From Frankiales bacterium (GTDB lineage: Bacteria > Actinomycetota > Actinomycetes > Mycobacteriales > SCTD01): a stretch of DNA of 39,875 bases. How positions within the stretch are numbered: position 1 is the first letter of the stretch; each line of letters starts with the position of its first letter. The position numbers were made by a program, and so were the translations under genes. The stretch spans positions 1 through 39,875 of the forward strand of contig JAYVYM010000227.1 in NCBI GenBank assembly GCA_043784245.1, given 5' to 3'. A model generated the notes under the pieces. That model was given only the letters and a program-made list of their open reading frames with translations, did no database searches and was not told the DNA's origin. Below are positions 25,473-39,875 of the stretch, piece after piece.

Positions 25473-25945
25473 GCCGTCGCCGTCAGCGGTCCGGCTCCTC
25501 CGGCGGCCGGTCTCGGGGGACCCACGGGGACCGGTGTGGGCTGAAGTGCTCCAGGACGGCGGCGATACGTTCCACCTCGTCCTGTGATCGGACTGGCGCC
25601 GAGCGGACACCGGGCCTGTCCTGTCGGGTGACGGTCACGGGTGTCTGACGCGGTGCGGGGCACCGCAGACATGGGCGGCGGGCATATGGGGCTCCGGTGA
25701 AGCACGAGGATCCCTGGCTCCCCGGCTGCGAGCGTTGCGCTCAGGAACGACGGCGCACGGTGCGCGGCGGTCCCGACCCGGGTCGGCTGTGATGTTCAGC
25801 CACGTGACCGTACGCCCGGTTGCACGCGGTGCACAGCCCCGGAGCGGGTCGGGCACACCTCGGAAGCAGGCCGCTCCGGCCGACGGACCGCACAATGGTT
25901 ATGCGGGCGCCGGTGCGGTGTGGCTCCCCGGACCTGGAGGTTGCC

Positions 25946-26716
25946 GTGGATGAGGACCTGACGGTGAGCCTGACCGGCCTGTCCGGGCTGCTGACCGACC
26001 ACCGACCGCTGGGCGACACGCTGATCGAGGTCGCGCAGTTCGCCGTAGACGCCATCCCGGGGGCCGACGGCGCGGGACTGACGATGCTCGAGGACGACCG
26101 GGCACAGACCGTGGTGTCCACCTCCGAGTTCGTGCACGCCGTCGACGATGTCCAGTACGGGCTGGGAGAGGGACCGTGCCTGAAGGCGGTTGCCTCGGGT
26201 GTCACGCAGACCTCCGGCTCGCTCGGCGGGGACCCACGTTGGCCGCACTTCGGTCCGCGGATCGGCCGGATGGGCGTGCACAGCGTCCTCTCGCTCCCGC
26301 TGCTGCTGCCCGGACCGGCAGCGGACGACCGGGTCATCGGCGCGATGAACGTGTATGCCCGTGCCAAGAACGCTTTCGGTCCCGACGCGATACGGATCGG
26401 CGAGCTGTTTGCCCGTCCCGCCGCGGTGTCGGTGCACAACGCCCAGGTCCTGGCGCAGTCCCAGCGTCTCGCCGCTCAGCTTGCGGAGGCGCTGCACAGC
26501 CGGGCAGTCATCGACCAGGCGCTCGGCGTACTGATGAGTCGCAGCGGCGCCACGCCACAGGAGGCGTTCGACCGGCTCCGCACCATGAGCCAGACCCAAC
26601 ACGTCAAGGTGGCCGAGGTCGCGCGGGTGCTGGTGGACGAGGCCGTCCGCCGGGCCCGCAGCCGACAGCCGGCCCCCGGGCAGGCGGGTCCGGGCGCAGC
26701 GCACCCGGCGTCGTGA
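25946..26716 (+). CDS. GAF domain plus ANTAR domain RNA-binding regulator
   Basis: The N-terminal GAF-like region (GLGEGPCL, VLSLPL...IGAMNVY) is followed by ANTAR (AVIDQALGVLMSRSGATPQEAFDRLRTMSQTQHVKVAEVARVLV). GTG 25946 has a GGAGG RBS 5 nt upstream. ATG 25895 is an alternative. Confidence 0.8.
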   Translation: MDEDLTVSLTGLSGLLTDHRPLGDTLIEVAQFAVDAIPGADGAGLTMLEDDRAQTVVSTSEFVHAVDDVQYGLGEGPCLKAVASGVTQTSGSLGGDPRWPHFGPRIGRMGVHSVLSLPLLLPGPAADDRVIGAMNVYARAKNAFGPDAIRIGELFARPAAVSVHNAQVLAQSQRLAAQLAEALHSRAVIDQALGVLMSRSGATPQEAFDRLRTMSQTQHVKVAEVARVLVDEAVRRARSRQPAPGQAGPGAAHPAS

Positions 26717-26717
26717 C

Positions 26718-26733
26718 CGCGGCCGTTGCCGCG
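26718..26733 (+). terminator. GC hairpin immediately after the first ANTAR gene stop (possible terminator, no U-tail)
   Basis: CGCGGC cgtt GCCGCG: a 6-bp stem with a tetraloop, starting 2 nt after TGA 26714..26716. Confidence 0.3.
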
Positions 26734-26869
26734 TAGGCGACCGTGAAGGCGGCCGTGGAGGCGTAGCGTGCAGTTGCGGATCGGAAGGCATCCGCCGCTC
26801 GTACGGCGCGCCAGGCTGGAGTGCGACAACCCGCCCCAGCGCCCCGGGCAGCCTTCGACCCGGGCCCCG

Positions 26870-26922
26870 GTCCCTGCCGGTGCCTCCCGGCCTGCCGCGA
26901 TGTCTGCGCGGCCGGCAGGGAC
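26870..26922 (+). promoter_or_regulatory. Extended hairpin in the leader of the second ANTAR gene
   Basis: GTCCCTGCCGG (26870..26880) pairs perfectly with CCGGCAGGGAC (26912..26922). An inner GCCGCG/CGCGGC stem encloses a loop that contains ATG 26900. Confidence 0.35.
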
Positions 26923-26959
26923 GGGTCCTCGTGATCCGCGCCGGTCAGGAGTCCAGCCT

Positions 26960-27580
26960 GTGGACCTGGCGACAGTGCTCGCAGCGCACCTGCAGACCTT
27001 CGACGCTCGCCCCGAGCATGTCAGGGGCCAGCCCGAGGCCGCACACGACATGACGGACTTCGCCGCGGGGCTCTCGAGCCTGCTGGGTGCCCTGCGCATC
27101 GGGGTCCCGTCCTGCCTGGCGGTGTCGATCCTGGACAGCCGACCGGCCGGCAACCTCACGATCACCGCCCCCGCAGCCGGCAGCTCATCGACGGTCGAGC
27201 CGGCCGTACGCGCCTCCCTGGCGGTGCGCCTGGCTGTCCCCGCACGCCCGGGGATGCTGCTGCTGCTGCAGGCTGCCGCCCCTGGGGCCTTCGTCGGGCT
27301 GGCCGGGGAGCTGGCGGGTCAGCTCGACAACGGCCGGGCGGCACTGCTGATGGATCGGCATCTCGTCCTGCGGCCGGACCCGGAAGGACAGCGGCTCGCG
27401 GTCGACCTGGCCGACCTGCGGGCAGTCGAGCAGGCGGTCGGCGCGCTGATCGGGCAGGGCCGACTGCCGGTGGTTGCCCGCCAGGAGCTGCTGGACCGGG
27501 CAGTGGAGGCGGAGCTGACCGTGCCGGCGCTGGCTCGGCAGTTCTTGGCGGCGTTGGCCTACCGGGCCCGTCCGGATTGA
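26960..27580 (+). CDS. ANTAR domain protein with divergent N-terminal sensor region
   Basis: The C-terminus LADLRAVEQAVGALIGQGRLPVVARQELLDRAVEAELTVPALARQFLAAL resembles ANTAR. GTG 26960 has an AGGAG RBS 8 nt upstream. G/C content at third codon positions rises sharply at this point. The track start at 26768 is probably too long. Confidence 0.6.
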   Translation: MDLATVLAAHLQTFDARPEHVRGQPEAAHDMTDFAAGLSSLLGALRIGVPSCLAVSILDSRPAGNLTITAPAAGSSSTVEPAVRASLAVRLAVPARPGMLLLLQAAAPGAFVGLAGELAGQLDNGRAALLMDRHLVLRPDPEGQRLAVDLADLRAVEQAVGALIGQGRLPVVARQELLDRAVEAELTVPALARQFLAALAYRARPD

Positions 27581-27716
27581 CAGAAAACCCCGCCGACGCG
27601 CAACCTTGAGTTGCTGAGTGCCAGCCAGTCCGGAACGGCAGTGCCGCGAGAGCCGCGCCGCCGGAGCGCATCAGCTCACCGCCGGACGCACCCTTGACCT
27701 GTTCTTGAGGGCATCC

Positions 27717-28613
27717 ATGAGCACCGTACTTCCCGTTCTTGCCGTCATTGCCGTCTTCCTGCTGCTCGCTCTCGCGGTCTCGGTGCGGATCATCAAGCAG
27801 TACGAGCAGGGCATCCTGTTCCGCTTCGGCCGGGTCATCGGCGTCCGCCAACCCGGGCTGCGCCTGATCATCCCGCTCGTCGACGTGCTGCACAGGGTGT
27901 CGCTGCGGATCGTCACGATGCCGATCCAGTCGCAGGGGATCATCACCCGAGACAACGTGAGCGTCGACGTCTCCGCTGTCGCCTACTTCCGGGTCGTCGA
28001 CGCCACCAAGGCCGTGGTGGCCATCGAGAACGTGTACGCGGCGATCGACCAGATCGCGCAGACCACGCTGCGCAAGGAGGTCGGGCAGCACACCTTGGAC
28101 GAGACGCTGTCCGAGACGGACTCCATCAACCTCGAGATCCGTAAGATCCTGGACATCAACACCGAGGAGTGGGGCGTCCAGGTCACGCTGGTCGAGCTCA
28201 AGGACATCCAGCTGCCGGACAGCATGAAGCGGGCGATGGCCCGGCAGGCGGAGGCGGAGCGCGAGAAGCGCGCGAAGATCATCAATGCTGAGGGTGAGTC
28301 GCTGGCCGCCGAGGCGCTCGGCGTCGCCTCCGACATCATGATGGCGCACCCGCTCGCCCTCCAGCTGCGCAACCTGCAGAGCCTGGTGGAGATCGGCGTG
28401 GACAAGAACACCACTGTCGTATTCCCGGCCCCCCTGATGAGCACCATCGGCGAGCTCGGTGCGTTCATGGCCCGCGAGACCGCTGCGGCCAGCACTGCCG
28501 GCACGGCCGGCGCAGCACGTCCGGTGCCGGGGACGCAGGACGCCGGTACGCCGCCGGCGACAGCTACCGACGCCCCCAATGGCAGCGCCCCAGTGTTCCC
28601 GCTGCGCGGCTGA
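27717..28613 (+). CDS. SPFH/band 7 (stomatin-like, slipin) membrane protein
   Basis: N-terminal TM, then [18 protein letters not shown]...[10 protein letters not shown]...[18 protein letters not shown]...[17 protein letters not shown]...[17 protein letters not shown] 27717 follows a GAGGG RBS. Confidence 0.9.
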
Positions 28614-28663
28614 CCTCCTGAAAGTTCCCGAACTTGCCCCGCCAGACCGCTAGAGGAGTCCCG

Positions 28664-29155
28664 ATGGTCAGCCCGCTTCAACCCTCCGACGCGCCGTTCC
28701 GCGCCGCAGCGCTCACGGCCAAGCCGCAACACCTGCTGGCGACCTTCCCGACGTACGCCGGTGCCGAGCAGCTGGTCGACAAGCTGTCCGACAACGCTTT
28801 CCCGGTCGAGCACGTCCGGATCGTCGGCAACGGCCTGCGCTCGGTGGAGTACGTCACCGGTCGCCTCACCAGCGGTAGGGCCGCGCTGGCCGGCGCCGCC
28901 ACCGGCGCCTGGATCGGACTGCTGATCGGCATTCTGATCAACTTGTTCAGCGCGGGATCCACCTCGTTCGCGAATGTGCTCGGCAGCGTCATCATCGGTG
29001 CGTTCTGGTGGGCCCTGTTCGGCTACTTCGCCCACCGTGCCACCCACGGGCGCCGGGACTTTGCCAGCGTCAAGGGCGTGGAGGCCGAGCAGTACCAGGT
29101 CTACGTCGATGCCGACCAGGCCGACCAGGCGATCCGGCTCGGCGGCCTGCTGTAG
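28664..29155 (+). CDS. Membrane protein with YflT/general-stress-protein-like N-terminal domain
   Basis: LATFPTYAGAEQLVDKLSDNAFPVEHVRIVGNGLRSVEYVTGRLT is followed by two glycine-rich TM helices. ATG 28664 has a GAGGAG RBS 5 nt upstream. Confidence 0.7.
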   Translation: MVSPLQPSDAPFRAAALTAKPQHLLATFPTYAGAEQLVDKLSDNAFPVEHVRIVGNGLRSVEYVTGRLTSGRAALAGAATGAWIGLLIGILINLFSAGSTSFANVLGSVIIGAFWWALFGYFAHRATHGRRDFASVKGVEAEQYQVYVDADQADQAIRLGGLL

Positions 29156-29186
29156 CCACCGCAGATCGGCCGGCTGGTCGCCGGAC

Positions 29187-31832
29187 ATGACGACCGCGGC
29201 GCCCGCCCGCCCGGACCGATCCCTCACCGGCATCGTCGATGGCGCCAGCCTGACAGCTGACGAAGTACTCGCGGCCCTGGGCGTCAGTACCCACGGACTC
29301 AGCGGTCGTGACGTCGCGGAACGGCAGGCGCGATGGGGACCTAACGCGGTGGCCTCACACCACGCGCGGGTGCTGCCGGTGCTCTGGCACCAGTTGCGCT
29401 CGCCCTTGCTCGGCCTGCTGCTGATAGCCGCGGTGGCGTCGTACGCCGCCGGTGAGCGCAGCGCGGCGGTGATCATCGGGGTGATTGTCGCGCTGTCCGT
29501 GGGGCTGGGGTTCGTCAACGAGTACCGCGCCGAGAAGGCCGCCGAGGCGCTGCACTCCTCCATCAGCCACGAGGTCGTGGTCGTTCGCGACGGGGCTCCG
29601 GTGGCGGTGGACGTCACGACGCTGGTCCCCGGTGACCTCGTCGAGCTCCAGCTCGGCAACATCGTGCCGGCCGACCTGCGGCTGCTCCAGGTTGCCGGGC
29701 TCGAGTGCGACGAGTCGGTCCTGACCGGTGAGTCGCTGCCCGTCGCCAAGGACGTGGAGCCGGTGCCCGCGAGGACGGCGCTCGCCGAGCTGACCGGGTG
29801 CGCGCTGATGGGGACCGTCGTGCACAGCGGCAGCGGCAGCGGGGTCGTCGTGACCACCGGGGCCCGGACCGAGTTCGGGAAGATCGCCGCCGGACTCGAC
29901 ACCCACCCTCTGGACACCGAGTTCCAGGTCGGGCTGCGGCGGTTCTCGATGCTGCTGGTGTACGTGGGTGGCGCCCTCACGTCCGCGATCTTCTTGATCA
30001 ATGTGGTGCTGCACAAGCCGGTCCTGGACGCCCTGCTGTTCTCTCTCGCGATCGCCGTCGGCATCACGCCGCAGCTGCTACCGGCGGTGGTGTCCACCAG
30101 CCTGGCCGCGGGCTCCCGGCGGATGCGGCAACGCAAGGTGCTGGTCAAGCGGCTGGTCTGCATCGAGGACCTCGGCGACGTCGACGTGCTGTTCACCGAC
30201 AAGACCGGCACGTTGACGGTCGGCCGAATTGACTTCACCCGCGCCACAGCCACTGGTAGCGACCCTGAGGACTCGGCTGCTGTGCTGCGCTGGGGGTTGC
30301 TCAGCACCGAGAACGCGAGTGGCCCGGCCGGTCATGGCGTCGGTGGTAACCCGCTCGACCAGGCCCTGTGGCTGGCCCCGGCAGCCAGTCGCGAGCACGA
30401 GGCTCTGTCGGCGTACACCAGGCTGGGGGTGCTGCCCTTCGACCACGACCGCGCGATGGTCTCGGTCCTGGTGCGCGACGCGGCCGGGCAGCTGACCCTG
30501 GTCACCAAGGGCGCCCCGGAGAATGTGCTCGAGCGCTGCCTCGACGTGCCGGCCGGCGCCCGCACGGAGCTCGCGGCCCAGTTCGCAGCCGGCAACCGGG
30601 TTGTCGCCGTCGCGACCCGATCGGTCGCCGATCCTCGCGCTCCCTGCGCAGCCGATGAGCAAGGCCTGCACCTGCAGGGACTGCTGGTGTTCCTGGATCC
30701 GCCGAAGACCGACGCCGCTCAGGCGTTGCGCCGGCTCGCCGAGCTGGGGATCTCGGTGAAGGTCGTCACCGGCGACAACCCGGCGGTCGCCGTCAAGGTA
30801 TGCGCCGACCTGGGGCTGGGGGTGGGCGAAGCCGCGCTGACCGGGGCCGATCTGGACGAGCTCGACGACACCCGGCTCGCCGCCGAGATCGCCCGAACCA
30901 CGGTGTTCGCCCGGGTGACTCCCGAGCACAAGGCGCGCATTGTCGCCGTCCAGCGCCGGACCGGTGGCGGTGTCGCGTTCCTCGGCGACGGCGTCAACGA
31001 TGCGCTCGCGCTGCATGCGGCCGACGTCGGGATCTCGGTCGACACCGCCACCGATGTCGCGAAAGACGCCGCCGACGTGATCCTGCTGGAGACGGACCTG
31101 GATGTGCTCGCCGACGGGGTCGTCGAGGGCCGCCGGATCTTCGCCAACACCATCAAGTACGTGCTGATGGGCACCTCGAGCAACTTCGGCAACATGTTCT
31201 CCGCCGCCGGCGCCTCGCTGTTCCTCAGCTTCCTGCCGATGCTGCCGTCGCAAATCCTGCTCAACAACCTGCTGTACGACACCAGCCAGCTCGCCATTCC
31301 GACCGACAACGTCGATGCGGCGCAGCTTCGCAAGCCCTCGCACTGGGACATTGCGTTCATCCGCAGGTTCATGCTGTACTTCGGTCCGCTCAGCTCGGTG
31401 TTCGACTTCGTGACCTTCGGCGTCATGCTGTACGTGTTCCACTCCGGCCCGGCGCAGTTTCGCTCCGGCTGGTTCGTCGAGTCGCTCGCCACCCAGACGC
31501 TGGTGATCTTCGCGATCCGGACTCGGCGGATCCCGTTCTTCCGCAGCCACCCGAGCCTGCCGTTGACGCTGTCCGCACTGGCCGTCGTCATCGTCGGTGC
31601 GTTGCTGCCGGCCACCCCGCTGGCGCACACCCTGGGCTTCCAGCCCTTGCCAGTGGCCTTTTTCGCCGCGCTGGCCGGGATGGTCGTCTGCTACCTCGCG
31701 CTGATCGAAGGTGGCAAGCGGCTGTTCTACGGCGCGGCTGCGGGTCCTGCCCCGACCCGGCGCGCGTACAGCCGACGCCGGCATCTGCGTCGCCGAGCTG
31801 CCTACTTCAGTACCGGCGCACCGGCCGCATAG
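29187..31832 (+). CDS. mgtA: Magnesium-translocating P-type ATPase (P3B, MgtA-type)
   Basis: [61 protein letters not shown], and the MgtA-specific IKYVLMGTSSNFGNMFS...FLPMLPSQILLNNLLYDTSQLAIPTDNVD. I chose ATG 29187. The track start at 28974 overlaps the upstream gene. Confidence 0.9.
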   Translation: MTTAAPARPDRSLTGIVDGASLTADEVLAALGVSTHGLSGRDVAERQARWGPNAVASHHARVLPVLWHQLRSPLLGLLLIAAVASYAAGERSAAVIIGVIVALSVGLGFVNEYRAEKAAEALHSSISHEVVVVRDGAPVAVDVTTLVPGDLVELQLGNIVPADLRLLQVAGLECDESVLTGESLPVAKDVEPVPARTALAELTGCALMGTVVHSGSGSGVVVTTGARTEFGKIAAGLDTHPLDTEFQVGLRRFSMLLVYVGGALTSAIFLINVVLHKPVLDALLFSLAIAVGITPQLLPAVVSTSLAAGSRRMRQRKVLVKRLVCIEDLGDVDVLFTDKTGTLTVGRIDFTRATATGSDPEDSAAVLRWGLLSTENASGPAGHGVGGNPLDQALWLAPAASREHEALSAYTRLGVLPFDHDRAMVSVLVRDAAGQLTLVTKGAPENVLERCLDVPAGARTELAAQFAAGNRVVAVATRSVADPRAPCAADEQGLHLQGLLVFLDPPKTDAAQALRRLAELGISVKVVTGDNPAVAVKVCADLGLGVGEAALTGADLDELDDTRLAAEIARTTVFARVTPEHKARIVAVQRRTGGGVAFLGDGVNDALALHAADVGISVDTATDVAKDAADVILLETDLDVLADGVVEGRRIFANTIKYVLMGTSSNFGNMFSAAGASLFLSFLPMLPSQILLNNLLYDTSQLAIPTDNVDAAQLRKPSHWDIAFIRRFMLYFGPLSSVFDFVTFGVMLYVFHSGPAQFRSGWFVESLATQTLVIFAIRTRRIPFFRSHPSLPLTLSALAVVIVGALLPATPLAHTLGFQPLPVAFFAALAGMVVCYLALIEGGKRLFYGAAAGPAPTRRAYSRRRHLRRRAAYFSTGAPAA

Positions 31833-32055
31833 TTGACAGCAGCCGCGGTTACCCGCAAGGTGAGCCGGCTGGGATCATCAGCTGGTCCGTGACGGTGGCG
31901 CTGCGCAAGTCGCGCCGCCGCGAGCGAGTCGCTCGGTGTCGGACGCGAATGGCGACAACGATCCGGTCTGCGTATTCCTGCGGCCGGTGTATCCATTGCC
32001 TGCGGGCGGGCCAGCGGCAGCAGCCGGGATGCCCACGCGCCATTCAGGAGGTCTT

Positions 32056-32235
32056 GTGATCGATCAGTTGTGGGGACCCGTTTTCAACCTGGTCGGTGAC
32101 GGGGGCTACCGCGCGTTGACCTTCGGCGACTGGTTCGTCATGAAGTACTCCAATGTCGTCATGTTCGTCGTCGTCGCGGCAGTGTTTGTCATTGGCGCGT
32201 TCGTCAACCTCCCCGGGAGCGAGGTGGAGCAGTGA
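32056..32235 (+). CDS. Small single-pass membrane protein (59 aa), first gene of the cytochrome b-like operon
   Basis: GTG 32056 has an AGGAGG RBS 4 nt upstream. Product: VIDQLWGPVFNLVGDGGYRALTFGDWFVMKYSNVVMFVVVAAVFVIGAFVNLPGSEVEQ. The stop overlaps the next gene's start (GTGA). Confidence 0.5.
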   Translation: MIDQLWGPVFNLVGDGGYRALTFGDWFVMKYSNVVMFVVVAAVFVIGAFVNLPGSEVEQ

Positions 32236-33011
32236 GCTCGGACGTGCGCGCTGCGGACTCGGTGACCGCGGTCGACGGGCGCGAGGCGTTCTCCTGGACG
32301 ACGCCGTCGCCGTGGGCGCGCAGCCTGCTGGTGCGCAACCTTCCGCTGCGGCGACTGCTCCCGGACCGGGAGCCCTCTTATGTCTCCTCGATGCTGTACA
32401 CGATGGGTGTCCTGACGCTGGGGTCGCTGCTCGTCGTCATCGTCAGTGGGGTCGTCCTCGCGGTGGGTGGCGTGCAGTGGTGGCACACCAGCACCCTCGG
32501 CGCGAGTGTCAACAGCGTCCACTTCTGGGGTGTCCAGGCCTTCTTCCTTTTCATGGCGGTGCACGCCTTGGCCAGCTACTTCACGATGGCGTGGCGCGGT
32601 GGCCGGGGCTTCACCTGGGTCACCGGGGTGCTGGCCTTCCTGCTCTCTGTCGTCACGTCCTTCACGGGTTTCCTGATGATGACCAACTGGGACGGCCAGT
32701 ATGTGGCGCAGCAGGCCAAGGACGCCTTCAACGCCATGGGTATCGGCGCCATCTGGAACGTCATGGACGTCGGCCAGCAGTTCACCCTGCATGTTGTCGT
32801 GACCTCCGGCCTGCTCGGCTTCATCGTGCTCATCCATCTTGGCCAGATCCGCCGCCGTGGGGTCGCCCCGCCGCCCGGGGCCGAGTACCTGGAGGTCGCG
32901 GACGACACTCCTGCGGTGCGGCTAGACACGACGGCCCCGGTAGCCGCGCAGGGGGTCCCTGCGCAGCCGACCGGGTCGCAGCCGGTGACGGTCCCGGGCG
33001 GCTCGCGATGA
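32232..33011 (+). CDS. Cytochrome b/b6 N-terminal-domain protein (di-haem, 4 TM)
   Basis: The helix B-like segment SVHFWGVQAFFLFMAVH has H-x13-H. TWVTGVLAFLLSVVTSFTGF is conserved. The helix D-like segment LHVVVTSGLLGFIVLIH has H-x14-H (b6/Firmicute-type spacing). GTG start is preceded by GAGGTGGAG. Confidence 0.8.
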   Translation: MSSDVRAADSVTAVDGREAFSWTTPSPWARSLLVRNLPLRRLLPDREPSYVSSMLYTMGVLTLGSLLVVIVSGVVLAVGGVQWWHTSTLGASVNSVHFWGVQAFFLFMAVHALASYFTMAWRGGRGFTWVTGVLAFLLSVVTSFTGFLMMTNWDGQYVAQQAKDAFNAMGIGAIWNVMDVGQQFTLHVVVTSGLLGFIVLIHLGQIRRRGVAPPPGAEYLEVADDTPAVRLDTTAPVAAQGVPAQPTGSQPVTVPGGSR

Positions 33012-34093
33012 CGCGCCTGCGCAGACACCCGCTGCGGCACTGGACCGGTCCCGAGCGGAAGTACGACCTGCTGTTCGAGGGCACCGTCGCCGTGCTGGTC
33101 GTCGCGGTCCTGGTCGTGACCGCCTCGATCCTGTTCGGTTCGCCGAACGGCGGCCTGCAGTACCCCGGGGGCCCCCCGTCCACGCCGGGAGCCGCGTTCA
33201 CCGCGCAGTACTGGGTCACCTCGCCGACCACGGACGACAAGGGTGTCAGCGACCCGAACGGTGGCGCGATGGACTTCGCCGCCACCGTGGTCACCGAGCT
33301 CGACGGGTCCTCGGCCACTGCGACCTACGGGCCGCCGTTCAACACGACCGCCGGCGCCTCACAGCACATCGGTCGGGTGTCGCTGGCCGGCATCGCGCAC
33401 AGCCTGTTCGGCCTGACACAGCCGATCAACACCGCCAGCGATTTCGTGCTGGCGCCGCTCGGTCGCACCGTCGCCCCCTATGACCCGGCGGTGGCTGACG
33501 CGCTGACGCAGTACCAGGCTGCCGGGGGGAGCGTGGCGGGCGGTGTCGCCGCCGATGCGCTGGTCTCCGACCAGCAGGCGACCTGGCTCAAGACCTATAC
33601 CGACGCCCTCGGCAAGGGGTCGGTCGACAACGCGAAGATCGACGTGGCGCCCGGCGACTACGGTCCGGTCGCGACGCTCGTCCAGGCTGAGCTGACGATG
33701 GCGCGGAACGGCTCGCTGGACGGCTTTCTGAGCAGCAGCGGTACGCAGATCACGACCAACCCGTACAAGGCCACGATGTTCTACAGCGACGGAAACGTCT
33801 GGAGCACGGTTGCGGCGGGCCAGGGCCTGACCGGCGACCAGTGGGGCGTCATGAACGAGCTGTGGAACTACCCGGGCCAGTTCTGGCTGATCCTGTACGC
33901 CATCCCGTACCACATCCCGTTGATCGTTGGCTCTGCGGCGGCCGACCTGTGGGTGGGCACCCTTATTGTCATCGTCGGCATGCTGTTGCAGCTTGCGCTG
34001 CCCTGGATCCCCGGCCTGCGCGACATCCCGCGGCTCGTGCCGTTCTACAAGGTGATTTATCGCAAGTACTACCGGGCCGCCAAGCAGCGCTGA
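33008..34093 (+). CDS. Membrane protein, possibly cytochrome b C-terminal/subunit IV-like, with a large extracytoplasmic insertion
   Basis: The ATG overlaps the upstream stop (ATGA). N-terminal TM (KYDLLFEGTVAVLVVAVLVV), a ~270-aa Cys-free soluble region, then TMs beginning NYPGQFWLILYAIPYHIP (position and pattern reminiscent of PEWYF...IP). The track ORF 32153..34093 is real only over its last 361 aa. Confidence 0.7.
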   Translation: MTRLRRHPLRHWTGPERKYDLLFEGTVAVLVVAVLVVTASILFGSPNGGLQYPGGPPSTPGAAFTAQYWVTSPTTDDKGVSDPNGGAMDFAATVVTELDGSSATATYGPPFNTTAGASQHIGRVSLAGIAHSLFGLTQPINTASDFVLAPLGRTVAPYDPAVADALTQYQAAGGSVAGGVAADALVSDQQATWLKTYTDALGKGSVDNAKIDVAPGDYGPVATLVQAELTMARNGSLDGFLSSSGTQITTNPYKATMFYSDGNVWSTVAAGQGLTGDQWGVMNELWNYPGQFWLILYAIPYHIPLIVGSAAADLWVGTLIVIVGMLLQLALPWIPGLRDIPRLVPFYKVIYRKYYRAAKQR

Positions 34094-34124
34094 ACACCTC
34101 TGCAGAACGAGTGCCAGCTGCCCG

Positions 34125-34361
34125 ATGCAGCAGGACTGCAGGCACGTCGCCGCGGTCCTGCTCACCGGCGGTGGCTCGCCCGGAGCGGCCCGCCGGCTCC
34201 CCCAGCTCCTGGTCTACCGGCTGGTCGCGACCGGCACGATCGGGGAGAAGGTCGTCGCGCTGCTGCAGCGCAGGCGCGATCTGTTCCCCCGGGTGGTGGA
34301 CGACGGGGCGCTGACCAGCACCGCCCTGACTGCAGACGGTAGCCGTCGGCTGTTCACCTGA
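34125..34361 (+). pseudogene. C-terminal remnant of an SNF2-family helicase
   Basis: LLVYRLVATGTIGEKVVALLQRRRDLFPRVVDDGALTSTALTADGSRRLFT matches the extreme C-terminus of SNF2/RapA-type helicases (VYRLVA-GTIEEKV-ALQ-RK--LF). No helicase motifs lie upstream, because the preceding gene ends at 34093. Confidence 0.6.
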
Positions 34362-35445: not shown

Positions 35446-37080
35446 TCAGGCGTCCTGCAGGTCCGCACCGGCCCGGCGCAGGGTGAAGCCGTCGTAGCCG
35501 TCGGCGACCACCTTCTCCAGGATCCGGCGGTAGCCGCGGACCCCGCCGACGTACGGCATGAAGACCCGCGGCTTGCCGGGCACCTCGTCGCCGTTGTAGT
35601 ACGACCTTGCCAGCGGGTAGAGGGTCTCCTGGGCGCGCTCGTTGACGTGCGCGACCCAGCCGCGCTCAGCGTCCTCGGTCGGCTCGACCACGGTGGCGTG
35701 CTCGGCGCGGACGTGTGTCAGCAGGTCGGCGATCCAGTCGACGTGCTGCTCGGTGGACAGCAGCACGTTGCTGAGCAGCGACGGGCTGCCGGGCCCGGCG
35801 ATGATGAACAGGTTCGGGAATCCGGAGACCATGACCCCGAGATAGGTGGCCGGCCCGCCCGACCACTTCTGCGCGAGCGTCACGCCGTCGCGGCCCACGA
35901 TCTCCGGGCGCAGCAACGAACCGGTCAGGGCGTCGAAACCGGTCGCGAAGACGATCATGTCGAGCTGGTGGTGCGCGGCCGAGGTCCGGATGCCGGTCGG
36001 GGTGATCTCCTGGATCGGGTGGCTGCGGATATCGGCGAGCGTGACGTTGTCTCGGTTGAACGTCTCGAAGTAGCCGCTGTCCACCGAGGGGCGCTTCGCG
36101 GCGAACGGGAAGTCCCGCGGCATCAGCTGCTCGCGGGTCTGCGGGTCCTGGACGGCGCCGGCAATCTTGCTACGGATGAAGTCGGCTGCGGTGTCGTTGG
36201 CCTGCTGGTCGCGCAGCAGGTCGTAGTAGGCCAGCGCGAAGCCGAACCCGGCGTGCGTCCAGGACTGCTCGTAGTGCGCGGTGCGCTCGTCGCTGCCCAC
36301 CTCGAGTGCCGACTGCCGGTTGGCCGGCACCGACAGCCCGCTGGGGGAGTTGCGGGCCGCCTCGCGGCGCTGCCGGTACGTCGCCTTGACCTCCGCATCC
36401 CGCTCGTCGGTGAGTGGGCCGTTGGTGGCCGGCACGCTGAAGTTGGCGGTGCGCTGGAAGACCGTGAGGTGCGCTGCCTGCTCGGCCAGGATCGGGATCA
36501 TCTGCATGCCTGAGGAGCCGGTGCCGATGATCCCGACCCGCTTGCCGGCGAAATCGACACTCTCGGGCCAGCGCGCCGAGTGGTGGATCTCGCCGGTGAA
36601 CAGCTCCTGACCAGGCAGTACGGGGTTCTTCGTGGTCGACAGCTGCCCGGTGGCCATGACGACGTAGCGGGCGCTCCACAGGGCGCCGGCCTCGGTCCGC
36701 ACCGACCAGCGCCCGTCGGCTTCGTCCCAGGCGGCCTGCGTCATCCGCTGGTGGAGGTGCACATCGCGCCGCAGGTCGAAGCGGTCGGCGACGTGGTGGA
36801 TGTAACGCAGGATCTCCGGCTGGGTGGCGTAGCGCTCGCTCCAGCGCCACTCCTGCTCGAGCTCCTCGGAGAAGGAGTAGGAGTAGTCGTAGCTCTCCAC
36901 GTCGCAGCGGGCCCCGGGATAGCGGTTCCAGAACCACACGCCGCCGACATCGCTGCCGGCCTCGAGAACGGCCACGCGCAGACCGCGTTCCCGCAGGGTG
37001 TGCAGGCTGCGCAGCCCGGCAAAGCCGGCACCCACGACGACGACGTCGACGACGGTGGCGTTCTGGACGGGCTGCGTCAT
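35446..37080 (-). CDS. Baeyer-Villiger (flavin-containing) monooxygenase
   Basis: VVVGAGFAGL FAD fold, BVMO fingerprint FTGEIHHSARWP, second Rossmann fold VGIIGTGSSG. ATG 37080 has a GAGGAG RBS. The track extension to 37311 is not supported. Confidence 0.9.
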   Translation of the reverse strand: MTQPVQNATVVDVVVVGAGFAGLRSLHTLRERGLRVAVLEAGSDVGGVWFWNRYPGARCDVESYDYSYSFSEELEQEWRWSERYATQPEILRYIHHVADRFDLRRDVHLHQRMTQAAWDEADGRWSVRTEAGALWSARYVVMATGQLSTTKNPVLPGQELFTGEIHHSARWPESVDFAGKRVGIIGTGSSGMQMIPILAEQAAHLTVFQRTANFSVPATNGPLTDERDAEVKATYRQRREAARNSPSGLSVPANRQSALEVGSDERTAHYEQSWTHAGFGFALAYYDLLRDQQANDTAADFIRSKIAGAVQDPQTREQLMPRDFPFAAKRPSVDSGYFETFNRDNVTLADIRSHPIQEITPTGIRTSAAHHQLDMIVFATGFDALTGSLLRPEIVGRDGVTLAQKWSGGPATYLGVMVSGFPNLFIIAGPGSPSLLSNVLLSTEQHVDWIADLLTHVRAEHATVVEPTEDAERGWVAHVNERAQETLYPLARSYYNGDEVPGKPRVFMPYVGGVRGYRRILEKVVADGYDGFTLRRAGADLQDA

Positions 37081-37252
37081 GCGGGTCTCCTCGCGCGTGT
37101 CCGGCCTGTCACGGTAGAGACAGTCCCCGATCCCGTCAACGGGTACGTTGATCAGACCGGTACCGCGTCGGGCCGGTGCCTGCGCGCTCGGGGGGCGGCT
37201 ACGGTCGCGTCCTCGCGCCTGCGGACAGCCGGCGCCGACCAGCGGAGCACTG

Positions 37253-38020
37253 ATGAACCTGTTCGACCTCACCGGCAAGGTCGCCCTGGTGACCGGGGGT
37301 ACCCGCGGCATCGGGCTGATGGTCGCGCGGGGCCTGCTGCAGGCCGGTGCGAGCGTCTACGTCAGCTCCCGCAAGGCCGAGGCCGGCGAGCAGGCCGTGC
37401 AGGAGCTCGCGCCGTACGGCCAGGTGGTCAGCCTGCCCGCCGACGTGTCCCGCGAGCAGGAGTGCCTACGACTGGCGGCGGAGGTCGCGGACCGGGAGGA
37501 CCACCTCGACGTGCTGGTCAACAACGCCGGCGCGACGTGGGGCGAGGCCCTGGAGACCTTCCCGGAGTCGGGGTGGGACAAGGTCGTCGACCTCAACCTC
37601 AAAGCACCGTTCTTCCTCTCCCGGGCGTGCCTGCCGCTGCTGACGGCCGCTGCGACCGCGGACGAACCCTCGCGGATCATCAACATCGGCAGCATCGACG
37701 GTCTGCGGGTGCCGGAGCTCTCGACCTACTCCTATTCCTCGACCAAGGCCGCCGTGCATCACCTGACCCGCGTACTGGCCAAGGAGCTGGGGCCGCGGCA
37801 CGTCACCGTCAACGCGATCGCCCCGGGGCCGTTCCCGTCGCGAATGATGGCGGCGACCCTGCAGGAGCACGGGGACGCCATCGCCGCGACCTCGCCGCTC
37901 GGTCGGATCGGTCGCGACGACGACATGGCCGGCGCGGCCGTGTACCTGGCCAGCCGGGCCGGCGCGTACGTGACGGGAGCCGTGCTGCCGGTCGACGGCG
38001 GGATCTGGACGACGAGGTAA
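37253..38020 (+). CDS. SDR family oxidoreductase
   Basis: VTGGTRGIG cofactor motif, NNAG, catalytic YSSTK (YxxxK). ATG 37253 with GGAG upstream. Confidence 0.88.
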   Translation: MNLFDLTGKVALVTGGTRGIGLMVARGLLQAGASVYVSSRKAEAGEQAVQELAPYGQVVSLPADVSREQECLRLAAEVADREDHLDVLVNNAGATWGEALETFPESGWDKVVDLNLKAPFFLSRACLPLLTAAATADEPSRIINIGSIDGLRVPELSTYSYSSTKAAVHHLTRVLAKELGPRHVTVNAIAPGPFPSRMMAATLQEHGDAIAATSPLGRIGRDDDMAGAAVYLASRAGAYVTGAVLPVDGGIWTTR

Positions 38021-38026
38021 GCGGTC

Positions 38027-38779
38027 TCAGCCGCGCGGACCACCGGCGGCGTACAGCACCTGGCCGGTGATGAAGCCCGAGCGCTCGTCGGCGAAGAAGG
38101 CCACCGCGTGCGCGATGTCCTCGGGCCGGCCGGAACGGCCGACCGGGATGTCGCGGAGCATGTCGCGCTCGACGTCCGCCAGCGTCCGACCGGCCCGCTC
38201 GGCCATCGACCGGGTCATCTCGGTCACCGTGAAGCCGGGCGCGACGACGTTGGCGGTGATGCCGTACGGACCCAGCTCCAGCGCCATCGTCCTGGTCAAG
38301 CCGAACAGGCCGGCCTTGGCGGCGGCGTAGTTGGCCTGCCCGACGGTGCCCAGGGCGGCGATGCTGGACAGGTTCACGATGCGCCCCCAGCGGGCCGGCG
38401 TCATGTGCCGCTGCGCCTCCCGGCTCATCAGGAAGGCTGCTCTGAGATTGACGTCGAGCACGGTGTCCCAGTCGGCGACGCTCATCTTGAACATCAGCCC
38501 GTTGCGCAGCACCCCGGCGTTGTTGACCAGCACCACGGGCGGCCCGAGCTCGTCCGCCACCCGCTGCACGGCCGCGCCCGCGGACTGCTCGTCGCTGACG
38601 TCCGCCGCGACCGCGAGCGCCCGGCGTCCGTGGCTCGTCACGGCCAGCACGGTCGCGGCGCAGGCGGCCTCCTCCAGGTCGAGCACGGCGATGTCGAGAC
38701 CGTCCGCGGCCAGCCGGACGGCGATCGCGGCCCCGATCCCGCGAGCGGCGCCGGTGACGATCGCCACCTTGGCGGTCAC
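38027..38779 (-). CDS. SDR family oxidoreductase (3-oxoacyl-ACP reductase FabG-like)
   Basis: VTGAARGIG, NNAG, catalytic YAAAKAG. The GTG start overlaps the upstream acyl-CoA synthetase stop (GTGA). Confidence 0.9.
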   Translation of the reverse strand: MTAKVAIVTGAARGIGAAIAVRLAADGLDIAVLDLEEAACAATVLAVTSHGRRALAVAADVSDEQSAGAAVQRVADELGPPVVLVNNAGVLRNGLMFKMSVADWDTVLDVNLRAAFLMSREAQRHMTPARWGRIVNLSSIAALGTVGQANYAAAKAGLFGLTRTMALELGPYGITANVVAPGFTVTEMTRSMAERAGRTLADVERDMLRDIPVGRSGRPEDIAHAVAFFADERSGFITGQVLYAAGGPRG

Positions 38780-39875
38780 GGCTGCCCCAGGTCGGCGAGG
38801 GCCCGCTCGGCGAGCAGGAACTTGCGGGGTCTGCCACTAGGCGTCGACGGGACGTCTCCGGCGTCGATCGGCAGGACGTACCTGGGCACCTTGAACTTCG
38901 CGAGCCGCTCCGCGCAGTACACCCGCAGCTCCTCCGGCGTGACCGGCGCCCCCCCGCGGAGCACGACGTACGCCACCCCGACCTCGCCCATCCGCCGATC
39001 CGGCAGCGGGACGACGTGCGCCTGGACGACGGCCGGATGCCCGGTGAGGACGTCCTCGATCTCTTTCGGGACGACCTGCTCCCCGCCGCAGCGGTAGCAG
39101 TCCTTCTTGCGCCCGACGAGGGTGAGGTAGTCGTCGTCGTCGAGCCGCCCCAGGTCACCGGTACGCAGCCAGCCGTCGCTGTCGAAGGCCGCGGCGTCCT
39201 CCTCGGGCTTTCGGTAGTAGCCGGGCGTGACACCCGGCCCCTTGACGAGCAGCTCGCCGACCGAACCCCGCGGCAGCTCCTGCGAGGTCTCGGGGTCGAC
39301 AACCCGGTACACCGCAAGGCGGCCACCGAGCCCGGGGTCACCGGCGATCCCGACGTCACGCAGCCGGCCGTTGGTGGTGAGCAGGCGCTCGCGGGGGTCG
39401 TCGGGCCGGGTGACCGTGGTGGAGGCGGTGGTCTCGCTCATGCCATAACCGGTCGTGACCTCCCGGGGCTGCAGCAGGGCGAAGATCTGCGCCCAGATCC
39501 ACTCCGGCGACTGGCCGCCCGAGGAGATCACCGAGGTCAGGCTGGACAGGTCGTAGCTGCCCTCGCGCAGTGCGTCGAGGACGGCCATCGTCATCACCGG
39601 GATGAGCAGGACGTCGTCGGCCCCGTGGCGCTCGATGCCCTGCAGGGTGTGGACCGGGTCGAAGGCGAGCTGCGGCACGACCGAGCCGCCGACGAACAGG
39701 GCTGCGAGCAGGCCCTCGACGTAGCCGTACACGTGGTACATCGGCAGCGAGAACAGGATCCGGCGGCCATCCTGGAAGGCCCGACCGTAGGCGCTGCCGT
39801 ACGCCGTGCGCAGCAGCATGTCGTGGGTGAGCAGGACGCCCTTCGGGCTGCCGGTCGTGCCGGAGGTGTAGAGGA
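38776..39875 (-). CDS. AMP-dependent acyl-CoA synthetase/ligase (5' end outside the window)
   Basis: The reverse complement of the window end reads LYTSGTTGSPKGVLLTHDMLL (AMP-binding P-loop), continuous with the track ORF. Also TGYGMSET, GWLRTGDLG, and the C-terminal KFKVPR. Confidence 0.88.
   Translation of the reverse strand, partial: LYTSGTTGSPKGVLLTHDMLLRTAYGSAYGRAFQDGRRILFSLPMYHVYGYVEGLLAALFVGGSVVPQLAFDPVHTLQGIERHGADDVLLIPVMTMAVLDALREGSYDLSSLTSVISSGGQSPEWIWAQIFALLQPREVTTGYGMSETTASTTVTRPDDPRERLLTTNGRLRDVGIAGDPGLGGRLAVYRVVDPETSQELPRGSVGELLVKGPGVTPGYYRKPEEDAAAFDSDGWLRTGDLGRLDDDDYLTLVGRKKDCYRCGGEQVVPKEIEDVLTGHPAVVQAHVVPLPDRRMGEVGVAYVVLRGGAPVTPEELRVYCAERLAKFKVPRYVLPIDAGDVPSTPSGRPRKFLLAERALADLGQP

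Follow-up and report, generated by a model that had tools for sequence, protein, structure and literature searches.

Three overlapping genes, here called g1, g2 and g3, lie on the forward strand at 32056-34093 of a 39.9-kb stretch of Frankiales DNA (contig JAYVYM010000227.1, 70.5% G+C), which as a whole is referred to as the window. A Shine-Dalgarno-like AGGAGG motif, read from the sequence, is located on the same strand at 32046..32051, 4 nt 5' of the GTG start codon of g1 (32056..32235, 59 aa). The GTG start codon of g2 (32232..33011, 259 aa) overlaps the stop codon of g1, and the ATG start codon of g3 (33008..34093, 361 aa) overlaps the stop codon of g2, so that the three open reading frames (ORFs) are translationally coupled by the stop/start overlaps GTGA at 32232-32235 and ATGA at 33008-33011. 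An earlier note on this DNA, which had proposed an orphan split cytochrome b-like operon, gave the same coordinates and overlaps, and re-reading of the sequence reproduced them. The G+C contents at third codon positions in the called frames are 0.85, 0.89 and 0.91 for g1, g2 and g3, respectively, and therefore all three genes are regarded as coding.

A conserved unit of three parts

The relatives of g3 form a large family. Around the clade of the window, more than 1111 homologues were found, and with a member from Amycolatopsis as the query at least 7985 significant relatives were obtained (7985 of the 8000 candidates scored), that is, about 8000 protein clusters. An exhaustive profile search yielded 763 representatives at the 50% identity level, and a g3 relative is encoded in at least 587 GTDB species genomes, mainly of Actinomycetota. 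The hosts include metagenome-assembled genomes (MAGs) of Mycobacteriales (80-91% identity), Streptacidiphilus, Kitasatospora, Trebonia, Amycolatopsis, Actinocrinis, Lacisediminihabitans, Streptosporangiaceae, Acidimicrobiia and Solirubrobacterales, a few Chloroflexota, and one contig labelled Saccharibacteria; across genera, the identity is 53-77%. All of the listed g3 homologues are annotated as "hypothetical" or "uncharacterized", and among them only a 516-aa protein (cluster P0437) has a Pfam domain, which is a cytochrome b N-domain. A tblastn search against plasmids gave no match, and literature searches found no characterisation of the trio, of the g1 component or of the domain of g3 that is predicted to face outward.

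For comparison of the gene arrangement, 83 related loci were fetched, 80 of which contain a full g2. A g2 homologue is located directly upstream of the g3 homologue in 82 of the 83 loci, the exception being cut off by a contig end, and each of the 80 loci with a full g2 has parts resembling g1, g2 and g3 in this order. The g1-like element is a separate ORF in 62 of these and shares the stop-to-stop frame of g2 in the other 18. The parts can also occupy a single reading frame, g2 with g3 in 19 loci and g1 with g2 and g3 in 17, for example in the single chains P0257 (554 aa) and P0252 (639 aa). Conservation of the same order of all three parts in every related locus examined is far beyond chance; g1-g2-g3 is one conserved unit. 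Thus, conservation of the trio, which the earlier note had left to a survey of gene neighbourhoods, is established for these loci.

The smallest part, g1, was described before as a 59-aa protein with a single transmembrane (TM) helix, and its translation agrees with that description. The helix, which spans about residues 33-53 (nt 32152-32214), is the only hydrophobic one in the protein, and comparison across the family predicts that the N-terminus is outside and the C-terminus inside. Pfam gave only a sub-threshold match to DUF6163. The g1-like elements of the other loci have the same pattern of a conserved N-terminal motif, predicted to face outward, followed by a single TM helix.

Two of the loci deserve separate mention. 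On contig CAVOWT010000006.1, an Acidimicrobiaceae MAG, two copies of the module (L014 and L079) are separated by about 460 kb, which shows that a single genome can hold paralogous copies. Contig DAIQON010000013.1, labelled Candidatus Saccharibacteria and with a G+C content of 43%, carries a 590-aa ORF (L078, 5128-6897) with g1-, g2- and g3-like parts, which is flanked by unrelated genes for IMP dehydrogenase, adenylosuccinate synthetase and a response regulator. Unless this contig is mis-binned, the host would be of the Saccharibacteria type, with little respiratory machinery.

The b6-type protein g2 and its partner g3

Judged from its sequence, g2 qualifies as a true di-haem N-domain of cytochrome b, of the b6 type, predicted to form four helices and to bind two haems. 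It passes the Pfam gathering thresholds of both PF13631 (35.9 bits, cut-off 27) and PF00033 (27.5 bits, cut-off 27.2), so that the comparison with hidden Markov models (HMMs) suggested in the earlier note turned out positive for this gene; cytochrome b N-domains were likewise found in the g2 homologues, and g2 itself is identical (100%) to protein cluster P0121. The best solved relatives are cytochromes b6, with 6rqf_I at the top (E 7e-7) and an alignment that spans helices A-D. In this alignment, H97, H111, H187 and H202 of g2 pair with the four haem ligands of cytochrome b6. These are the residues of the two bis-His pairs that had been recognised before: the helix B ligands His97 (32520-32522) and His111 (32562-32564) form the H-x13-H pair at 32520..32564, and the helix D ligands His187 (32790-32792) and His202 (32835-32837) form the H-x14-H pair at 32790..32837, which has the b6-type spacing. 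Among 78 distinct homologues, all four histidines are invariant, as are the arginines R122, R125 and R207, which follow helices B and D. A b6-like I-R-x-x-G-V-x-x-P stretch comes after the helix D ligands.

The conservation of g2 is not confined to the haem sites. The dipeptide Trp84-His85 in the extracytoplasmic ab loop (32481..32486) is conserved in 100% of the 78 homologues, and the conservation table shows many invariant polar residues in the cd-loop region (residues 145-182, 32664..32777), the invariant positions of the loop being T145, G146, N152, D154, Q156, K163, D164, N167, G170, G172, N176, G181 and Q182. As the residues of the ab and cd loops are mostly invariant, the outer face is as constrained as the haem sites. 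The CxGG motif of b6, whose Cys binds haem cn covalently (Dibrova et al. 2017, PMC5600118), reads TMGV in g2, with only the first Gly retained, and therefore a third haem is not expected. The scores of g2 are also far below the equivalog cut-offs of NCBIfam, namely 40.8 versus 325 bits for cytochrome b6 (PRK03735), 43.7 versus 290 for ExtP (NF040969), 21 versus 500 for QcrB_actino (NF050120) and 23.2 versus 740 for SoxC (NF041076), and g2 is therefore a member of no named subfamily. At its C-terminus, g2 has a 45-aa tail rich in Pro, Ala and Thr (residues 215-259, 32874-33008), which is not conserved in the family and occupies the position of the linker to the g3 part in single-frame relatives.

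The structure of g3 was modelled with AlphaFold from 32 diverse sequences (pLDDT 75; a run with 26 close sequences gave 56). In the model, the order of the elements is a TM helix, an acidic helical domain of about 243 aa without Cys, an interfacial helix, a second TM helix and a tail. The near-invariant Asp20 of a YDLL motif is followed by TM1 (residues 21-43; 33065..33136 with Asp20), which is the proposed equivalent of helix E. The soluble domain (residues 46-288, 33143..33871) has a pI of 4.1 and is mostly alpha-helical. A conserved interfacial stretch, MNELWNYPGQFWLILYAIPYHIP (residues 282-304, 33851..33919), lies at the position of the ef helix and PEWY of cytochrome b, and the interfacial helix itself comprises residues 292-307 (the PGQFWLILYAIPYHIP stretch), modelled as the short helices 292-302 and 304-307. 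TM2 (residues 312-333, 33941..34006), the proposed equivalent of helix F, has LPWIPG at its end and is followed by a basic amphipathic C-terminal tail (residues 334-361, 34007..34090) with eight Arg/Lys residues and short helices at 340-360, which is predicted to be cytoplasmic. Both termini of g3 are strongly basic, so both are predicted to be inside, with the soluble domain facing outward.

This build differs in two respects from what had been read from the letters alone. Several TM helices had been placed at the C-terminus of gene 3, and the model instead has the interfacial helix, one TM helix (312-333) and the cytoplasmic tail. The soluble region had been described as free of Cys and rich in Gly, Ala, Thr and Asp, and its composition is indeed of this kind, as Ala, Gly, Thr and Asp are abundant in residues 46-288 and the whole protein contains no Cys, but its length is about 243 aa rather than about 270 aa.

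The pLDDT is about 85 or more across roughly residues 90-240, and the soluble domain appears from the model to be a novel fold, with no known fold relative in the PDB or BFVD. A Foldseek search of the g3 model against both gave no match at E ≤ 0.001, with TM-scores ≤ 0.16; a g3 profile matched no PDB sequence at E ≤ 10; and no family model of Pfam or NCBIfam matched g3 or 32 relatives. The g3 family has no Pfam, NCBIfam or other name. Invariant in the family are P289, W293 and Y301, and D20, E24 and E284 are conserved to at least 90%; together with D313, the last three make up a set of conserved acidic residues in or beside the membrane-spanning parts. The soluble domain has the conserved motifs YGPP(F/Y)N, NTAxDFVLAP and GxYGPVP, and across the broad family its conserved positions are Pro, Gly, Tyr and Trp. 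The conservation is very strong in the outer-face loops of g2 and in the g3 stretch MNE..YPGQxWLxLY.

Some members of the family depart from the common length. In P0043, about 35 aa of the soluble domain (QQATWLNNYA.ALAK...TPT.VTVP, present twice; alignment columns ~200-250) are duplicated in tandem and in frame, and therefore this part of the domain tolerates insertion. In the cluster representatives P0352 (155 aa) and P0273, P0278 and P0281 (252-263 aa), the soluble domain is mostly or partly missing in a clean manner, and both TM parts and the QWGMMNE..YPGQ motif are kept; these proteins could be natural short forms or artefacts of assembly or gene calling.

The relation of g3 to the C-domain of cytochrome b, or subunit IV, was assessed with hhalign. 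The templates were eight PDB-checked chains, four subunits IV of b6f and the cytochrome b C-domains of R. capsulatus, R. sphaeroides, bovine and yeast origin, and the column order of the template was shuffled within windows of 10 columns to give 100 hydropathy-matched decoys. When 264 family members were used, 2% (local) and 0% (global) of the decoys scored as high, fewer than in the smaller comparison given below. Against all eight templates, these 264 members gave a local score of 29.6 (P 4e-4) over 108 colinear columns, which none of the 100 decoys reached (mean 15.4, sd 3.3, maximum 27.5), and a global score of 21.7, again with 0/100 decoys as high (3.2 ± 3.6). A reversed template scored 15.2, and the negative controls against the unrelated g2 family scored 15.3 and 17.5. 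In the alignment, the YDLL at the start of TM1 falls on the (N/K)DLL with which helix E begins, and SP(D/N) on the (E/A)P(S/D) at the outer end of this helix. W293 coincides with the PEWY Trp, and the LPWIPG with which TM2 ends on the inner side matches the VPFLEN or APWLDT that closes helix F. The best local match of full-length g3 comprises residues 313-340 and residues 93-120 of subunit IV, in helix F. The subunit IV HMM has its best local match at the colinear position in 149 of 193 g3 members, a count that is not independent evidence because the members are related to one another. The gene order of the module and its order in a single frame are the same as in split and fused cytochrome b.

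These results suggest that g3 has probably kept helices E and F and the ef helix between them, and that the ef loop is where the 243-aa domain was inserted, an assignment to which we attach moderate confidence. With moderate confidence, too, g3 can be regarded as a derived relative of the cytochrome b C-domain, which is not a member by the features that define that family. A number of results weigh against this assignment and against the wider reading developed from it below. At E ≤ 10, HMMER found no Cytochrom_B_C (PF00032) match in 32 g3 members, and in ten g3 constructs from which the soluble domain had been deleted Pfam detected no Cytochrom_B_C, only scattered sub-threshold TM noise. The hhalign comparison of 32 g3 sequences with six templates was colinear but not significant, as decoys scored as high in 12% (local) and 5% (global) of cases; even for the alignment of 264 members with eight templates, the HH-suite probability is just 34%. 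The PEWY motif is not kept, the consensus of g3 being YPGQxWLxLY with the Trp alone aligning, and the AlphaFold model has two TM helices (21-43 and 312-333), without an equivalent of helix G. Finally, no Cys, His or Met is conserved in the soluble domain across the broad family, so g3 has no obvious redox cofactor on the outside. Thus, the proposal that gene 3 is a C-domain with an expanded ef loop gains from the colinear alignment and its 100 surpassed decoys and loses from HMMER and the first, small test. In the same alignment, the interfacial stretch falls at the PEWY position, as had been proposed for the terminal part of gene 3, and the motif itself is lost save for the Trp.

Partners, proposed working and alternatives

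A Rieske box, taken as the pattern CxHxGC...CxxH, is present nowhere in the window, and the only CxxCH motif of the window falls opposite a short-chain dehydrogenase gene, in a frame that is not coding. The absence of a Rieske or CxxCH partner in or next to the operon, which had been claimed from the letters, is thereby upheld. Likewise, none of the 83 loci, which span several classes and two phyla, has a Rieske box within ±6 kb, although a Rieske protein encoded elsewhere in the genome would lie outside this span, which counts among the points against a Rieske-free reading. A nearby haem c subunit was not found either: CxxCH occurs in 6 of the 83 loci (±6 kb), incidentally and never in a conserved neighbour, in one case in an HNH-nuclease-like sequence. 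In none of the 83 loci, therefore, does the trio have a Rieske or cytochrome c gene beside it, and the constant adjacency that would have spoken against the earlier proposal is not observed. All-versus-all clustering of the neighbouring ORFs recovered just g1, g2 and g3 and the shadow ORFs antisense to g2 and g3; all real neighbour families beyond these occur in at most 15 of the 83 loci, at varying distance and on varying strands, and the recurring ones are generic (PPOX-like, acyl-CoA synthetase, ABC, MFS, two-component regulator, P450). The earlier statement that a Rieske protein is always involved where cytochrome b is split goes too far, as Dibrova et al. (2017, PMC5600118) list cytochrome b subfamilies of obscure function.

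In about 9-10 of the 83 loci, a DevS/DosT-like GAF-GAF histidine kinase and a LuxR-type response regulator are encoded within 1-4 kb, for example in L063 (229-2208, reverse strand) and L062 (1337-2212, forward strand). These kinases, together with a CtpF-like ATPase gene upstream of the trio in the window, raised the idea that the trio belongs to the DosR regulon. However, 41 sites of the GGGACnnnnGTCCC type were found in the window, where 60 are expected, and none is upstream of g1; as the sites are not enriched, the idea was dropped.

The reading that we favour, and that we consider about equally likely to be right or wrong, is that g1-g2-g3 is a Rieske-independent di-haem module derived from a bc complex, in which the ef loop has expanded into an extracytoplasmic domain of novel fold. 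The interpretation in the earlier note is thus partly supported, as the architecture and the lack of adjacent partners hold up and the homology of g3 has moderate support. The three proteins would form one membrane unit of seven TM helices (1 + 4 + 2). The two b haems would be bound by g2, one near each face of the membrane, as in cytochrome b6, and g3 would be a highly derived counterpart of subunit IV or the C-domain that has lost helix G and PEWY. The acidic helical domain of g3, of about 243 aa, would lie above the outer haem, on the external side of the membrane, and since the insertion occupies the ef loop, this domain should extend over the area where, in bc complexes, the Rieske head docks. 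One further helix would be added by g1, the conserved N-terminal tail of which would also face outward.

Such a unit would act as a transmembrane electron wire, from haem bn to haem bp or the reverse, without Rieske protein or cytochrome c. At one end of the wire would be the menaquinone pool and at the other a hydrophilic extracytoplasmic site made up of the invariant ab and cd loops of g2 and the domain of g3. The quinone site would most plausibly be a b6-like site at the inner face, formed by the I-R-x-x-G loop of g2 and Asp20/Glu24 of g3; in bc1, the quinone-reduction site is formed in part by the Asp of the KD(I/L)L motif. An inner-face site is the more plausible because the I-R-x-x-G-x-x-x-P loop and the near-invariant Asp are both kept. 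The outer site, with its invariant polar residues and the Trp-His pair, looks more like a domain interface or a site for a hydrophilic substrate than a lipid-exposed quinol pocket. The topology, the connection to quinone and any direction or partner of the electron flow are inferred from these features. A bolder and more doubtful version, offered tentatively, is that the family is a stand-alone class of cytochrome b enzymes, in which an outer domain without cofactor replaces the Rieske/cytochrome c branch and presents a small-molecule or metal substrate to the outer b haem; the surroundings of that haem would then include the invariant Trp-His of g2 and Glu284 of g3.

Other explanations have to be weighed against a Rieske-independent module. 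The trio could encode an alternative cytochrome b that, under some condition, replaces QcrB and borrows a Rieske protein and a cytochrome c encoded elsewhere, with a normal Q cycle. That g2 is a well-conserved b6-type cytochrome b would fit, and Rieske genes of bona fide complexes are indeed sometimes encoded away from cytochrome b (Baymann 2012, PMC3509893; Dibrova 2017, PMC5600118). Nevertheless, none of the 83 loci, across several classes and two phyla, has a Rieske box within ±6 kb; the PEWY motif of quinol oxidation is lost; the 243-aa insert is located exactly in the ef loop, which, to go by the structures of bc1 and b6f, would be the docking surface of the Rieske protein; and a single-ORF version occurs alone in a small, low-GC genome context. 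We therefore regard borrowing as distinctly unlikely. Alternatively, g3 might be unrelated to the C-domain, a bitopic-hairpin protein recruited to a four-helix di-haem anchor, with a likeness that reflects convergence of TM hairpins. Anchors of the NarI/FdnI type, which pair with non-homologous subunits, provide an analogy, and the missing similarity at the HMMER level, the first hhalign test within the range of its decoys, the HH probability of 34% at best and a soluble-domain fold without relatives all point in this direction. Yet the larger hhalign test surpasses all 100 decoys and both negative controls with the expected elements in order, and the gene order and single-frame order mirror those of split and fused cytochrome b, which makes an unrelated g3 unlikely.

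A role outside respiration, as a haem-based membrane sensor or a haem-handling or envelope-associated factor whose outward domain binds a non-redox ligand, seems highly improbable. It would account for a soluble domain without conserved residues of the redox type, for the DevS-like kinase and LuxR-type regulator in about 9-10 of the 83 loci, and for the stress-type membrane genes (SPFH, YflT, P-type ATPase) that precede the trio in the window. However, those neighbours are not conserved and DosR-type boxes are not enriched in the window, the trio contains no output or signalling domain, and neither the four haem ligands nor the haem-propionate arginines vary, which is also the case in cytochromes b that transfer electrons.

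Known systems, significance and genomic context

The closest known systems are PetB/PetD (b6 plus subunit IV) and the split QcrB/QcrC of Firmicutes, which have the same split gene order. With b6, g2 shares the four-helix N-part, the H-x13-H/H-x14-H pairs and the TWxTG and I-R-x-x-G-x-x-x-P motifs; with subunit IV, g3 shares (Y/N/K)DLL followed by a TM helix, an outer loop, an interfacial aromatic helix and a TM helix that ends in (V/L)P(F/W)(L/I). Unlike the b6f and Firmicute bc complexes, the module has no Rieske or cytochrome c/f gene within ±6 kb (83 loci) and contains an additional N-terminal component with a single TM helix, g1. Unlike b6f, it has TMGV in place of the CxGG with the Cys for haem cn, and unlike subunit IV, g3 has PGQxW instead of PEWY, lacks helix G and carries the 243-aa ef insert of predicted novel fold. 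The actinobacterial QcrB of the bc1-aa3 supercomplex (NF050120; PDB 7q21_B) comes from the same phylum, presumably depends on menaquinone as well, and is similar to g2 around helices B and C. It differs in being a single long protein that is encoded together with QcrA and QcrC, and in the score of g2, 21 bits versus a cut-off of 500; the present family is an additional lineage separate from it. The best NCBIfam match of g2 is ExtP of a selenite/tellurite reduction operon (NF040969, E 2.7e-11), which is also short, b6-like and outside the classical bc complexes, but g2 scores 43.7 bits versus a cut-off of 290, and no Ext-type operon surrounds the trio.

Cytochrome b homologues without a recognisable bc operon, the function of which is 'yet to be established', are among the subfamilies of Dibrova et al. 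(PMC5600118). The wording for subfamily H would fit the single-chain forms of 550-640 aa, and in the portion of that paper considered here there is no mention of an extracytoplasmic domain, a g1 component or a split trio.

A working analogy for an electron wire in the g1-g2-g3 module is provided by the di-haem membrane anchors NarI, FdnI and HydC, of four or five helices, and by the stand-alone superoxide:quinone oxidoreductase CybB. In these proteins, two stacked b haems connect a quinone site with a hydrophilic site at the opposite face without a Q cycle. Their folds and families are unrelated, and the three anchors work with a large cofactor-bearing partner (Nar, Fdn and Hyd, respectively), whereas CybB has none. 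To our knowledge, none of the four has a domain like that of g3.

The cytochrome b of bc and b6f complexes is among the best-studied membrane redox proteins and is normally discussed together with its Rieske partner. Here, a large conserved lineage has kept the two-haem core and probably the scaffold of helices E and F, with no adjacent Rieske or cytochrome c gene. If the module were an autonomous quinone-linked conduit, it would represent an unrecognised branch of actinobacterial respiratory chains and would show, as a natural test case, what the cytochrome b core is capable of when there is no bifurcation. The module also has a bearing on the proposal that bc complexes arose from simple membrane-anchored dehydrogenases. 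If the bolder version of a stand-alone enzyme were correct, one protein would provide a route from the menaquinone pool to the outside in soil Actinomycetota, some Chloroflexota and at least one contig labelled Saccharibacteria. The module is compact, with one to three genes, and has culturable hosts in Amycolatopsis, Kitasatospora, Streptacidiphilus and Trebonia, which makes the question directly testable.

In the window, the trio is preceded by a run of genes on the same strand (25808-31832), which is not kept beside the module in other genomes. The run starts with a regulator with ANTAR and GAF domains (25808-26716) and continues with a 277-aa ORF without assignment, an SPFH/Band 7 protein (27618-28613), a YflT-like stress protein (28634-29155) and the CtpF-like P-type cation ATPase (29187-31832), which has Cation_ATPase_N/C domains and is separated from the trio by 223 nt. 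Scans of 31.0-35.5 kb for promoters, terminators and Rfam families gave nothing informative.

Further downstream, a gene for a hexapeptide-repeat protein is located on the opposite strand 3' of the 101-aa ORF that directly follows g3. It is followed by a flavin-dependent monooxygenase gene of the FMO/Pyr_redox_3 type (35446-37083, reverse strand) and two short-chain dehydrogenase genes (37118-38020, forward strand, and 38027-38836, reverse strand), and neither the monooxygenase nor the dehydrogenases have a relation to the trio. The 101-aa ORF itself (34056-34361, forward strand) has a sub-threshold match to a SWIM zinc finger (E 0.007), and its C-terminal stretch, LVYRLVATGTIGEKVVALLQRRRDLF, is one that we take to resemble the extreme C-terminus of SNF2-type helicases. 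It may be what is left of a SWIM-SNF2 helicase gene that has collapsed, and would then hint at a rearrangement beside the trio.

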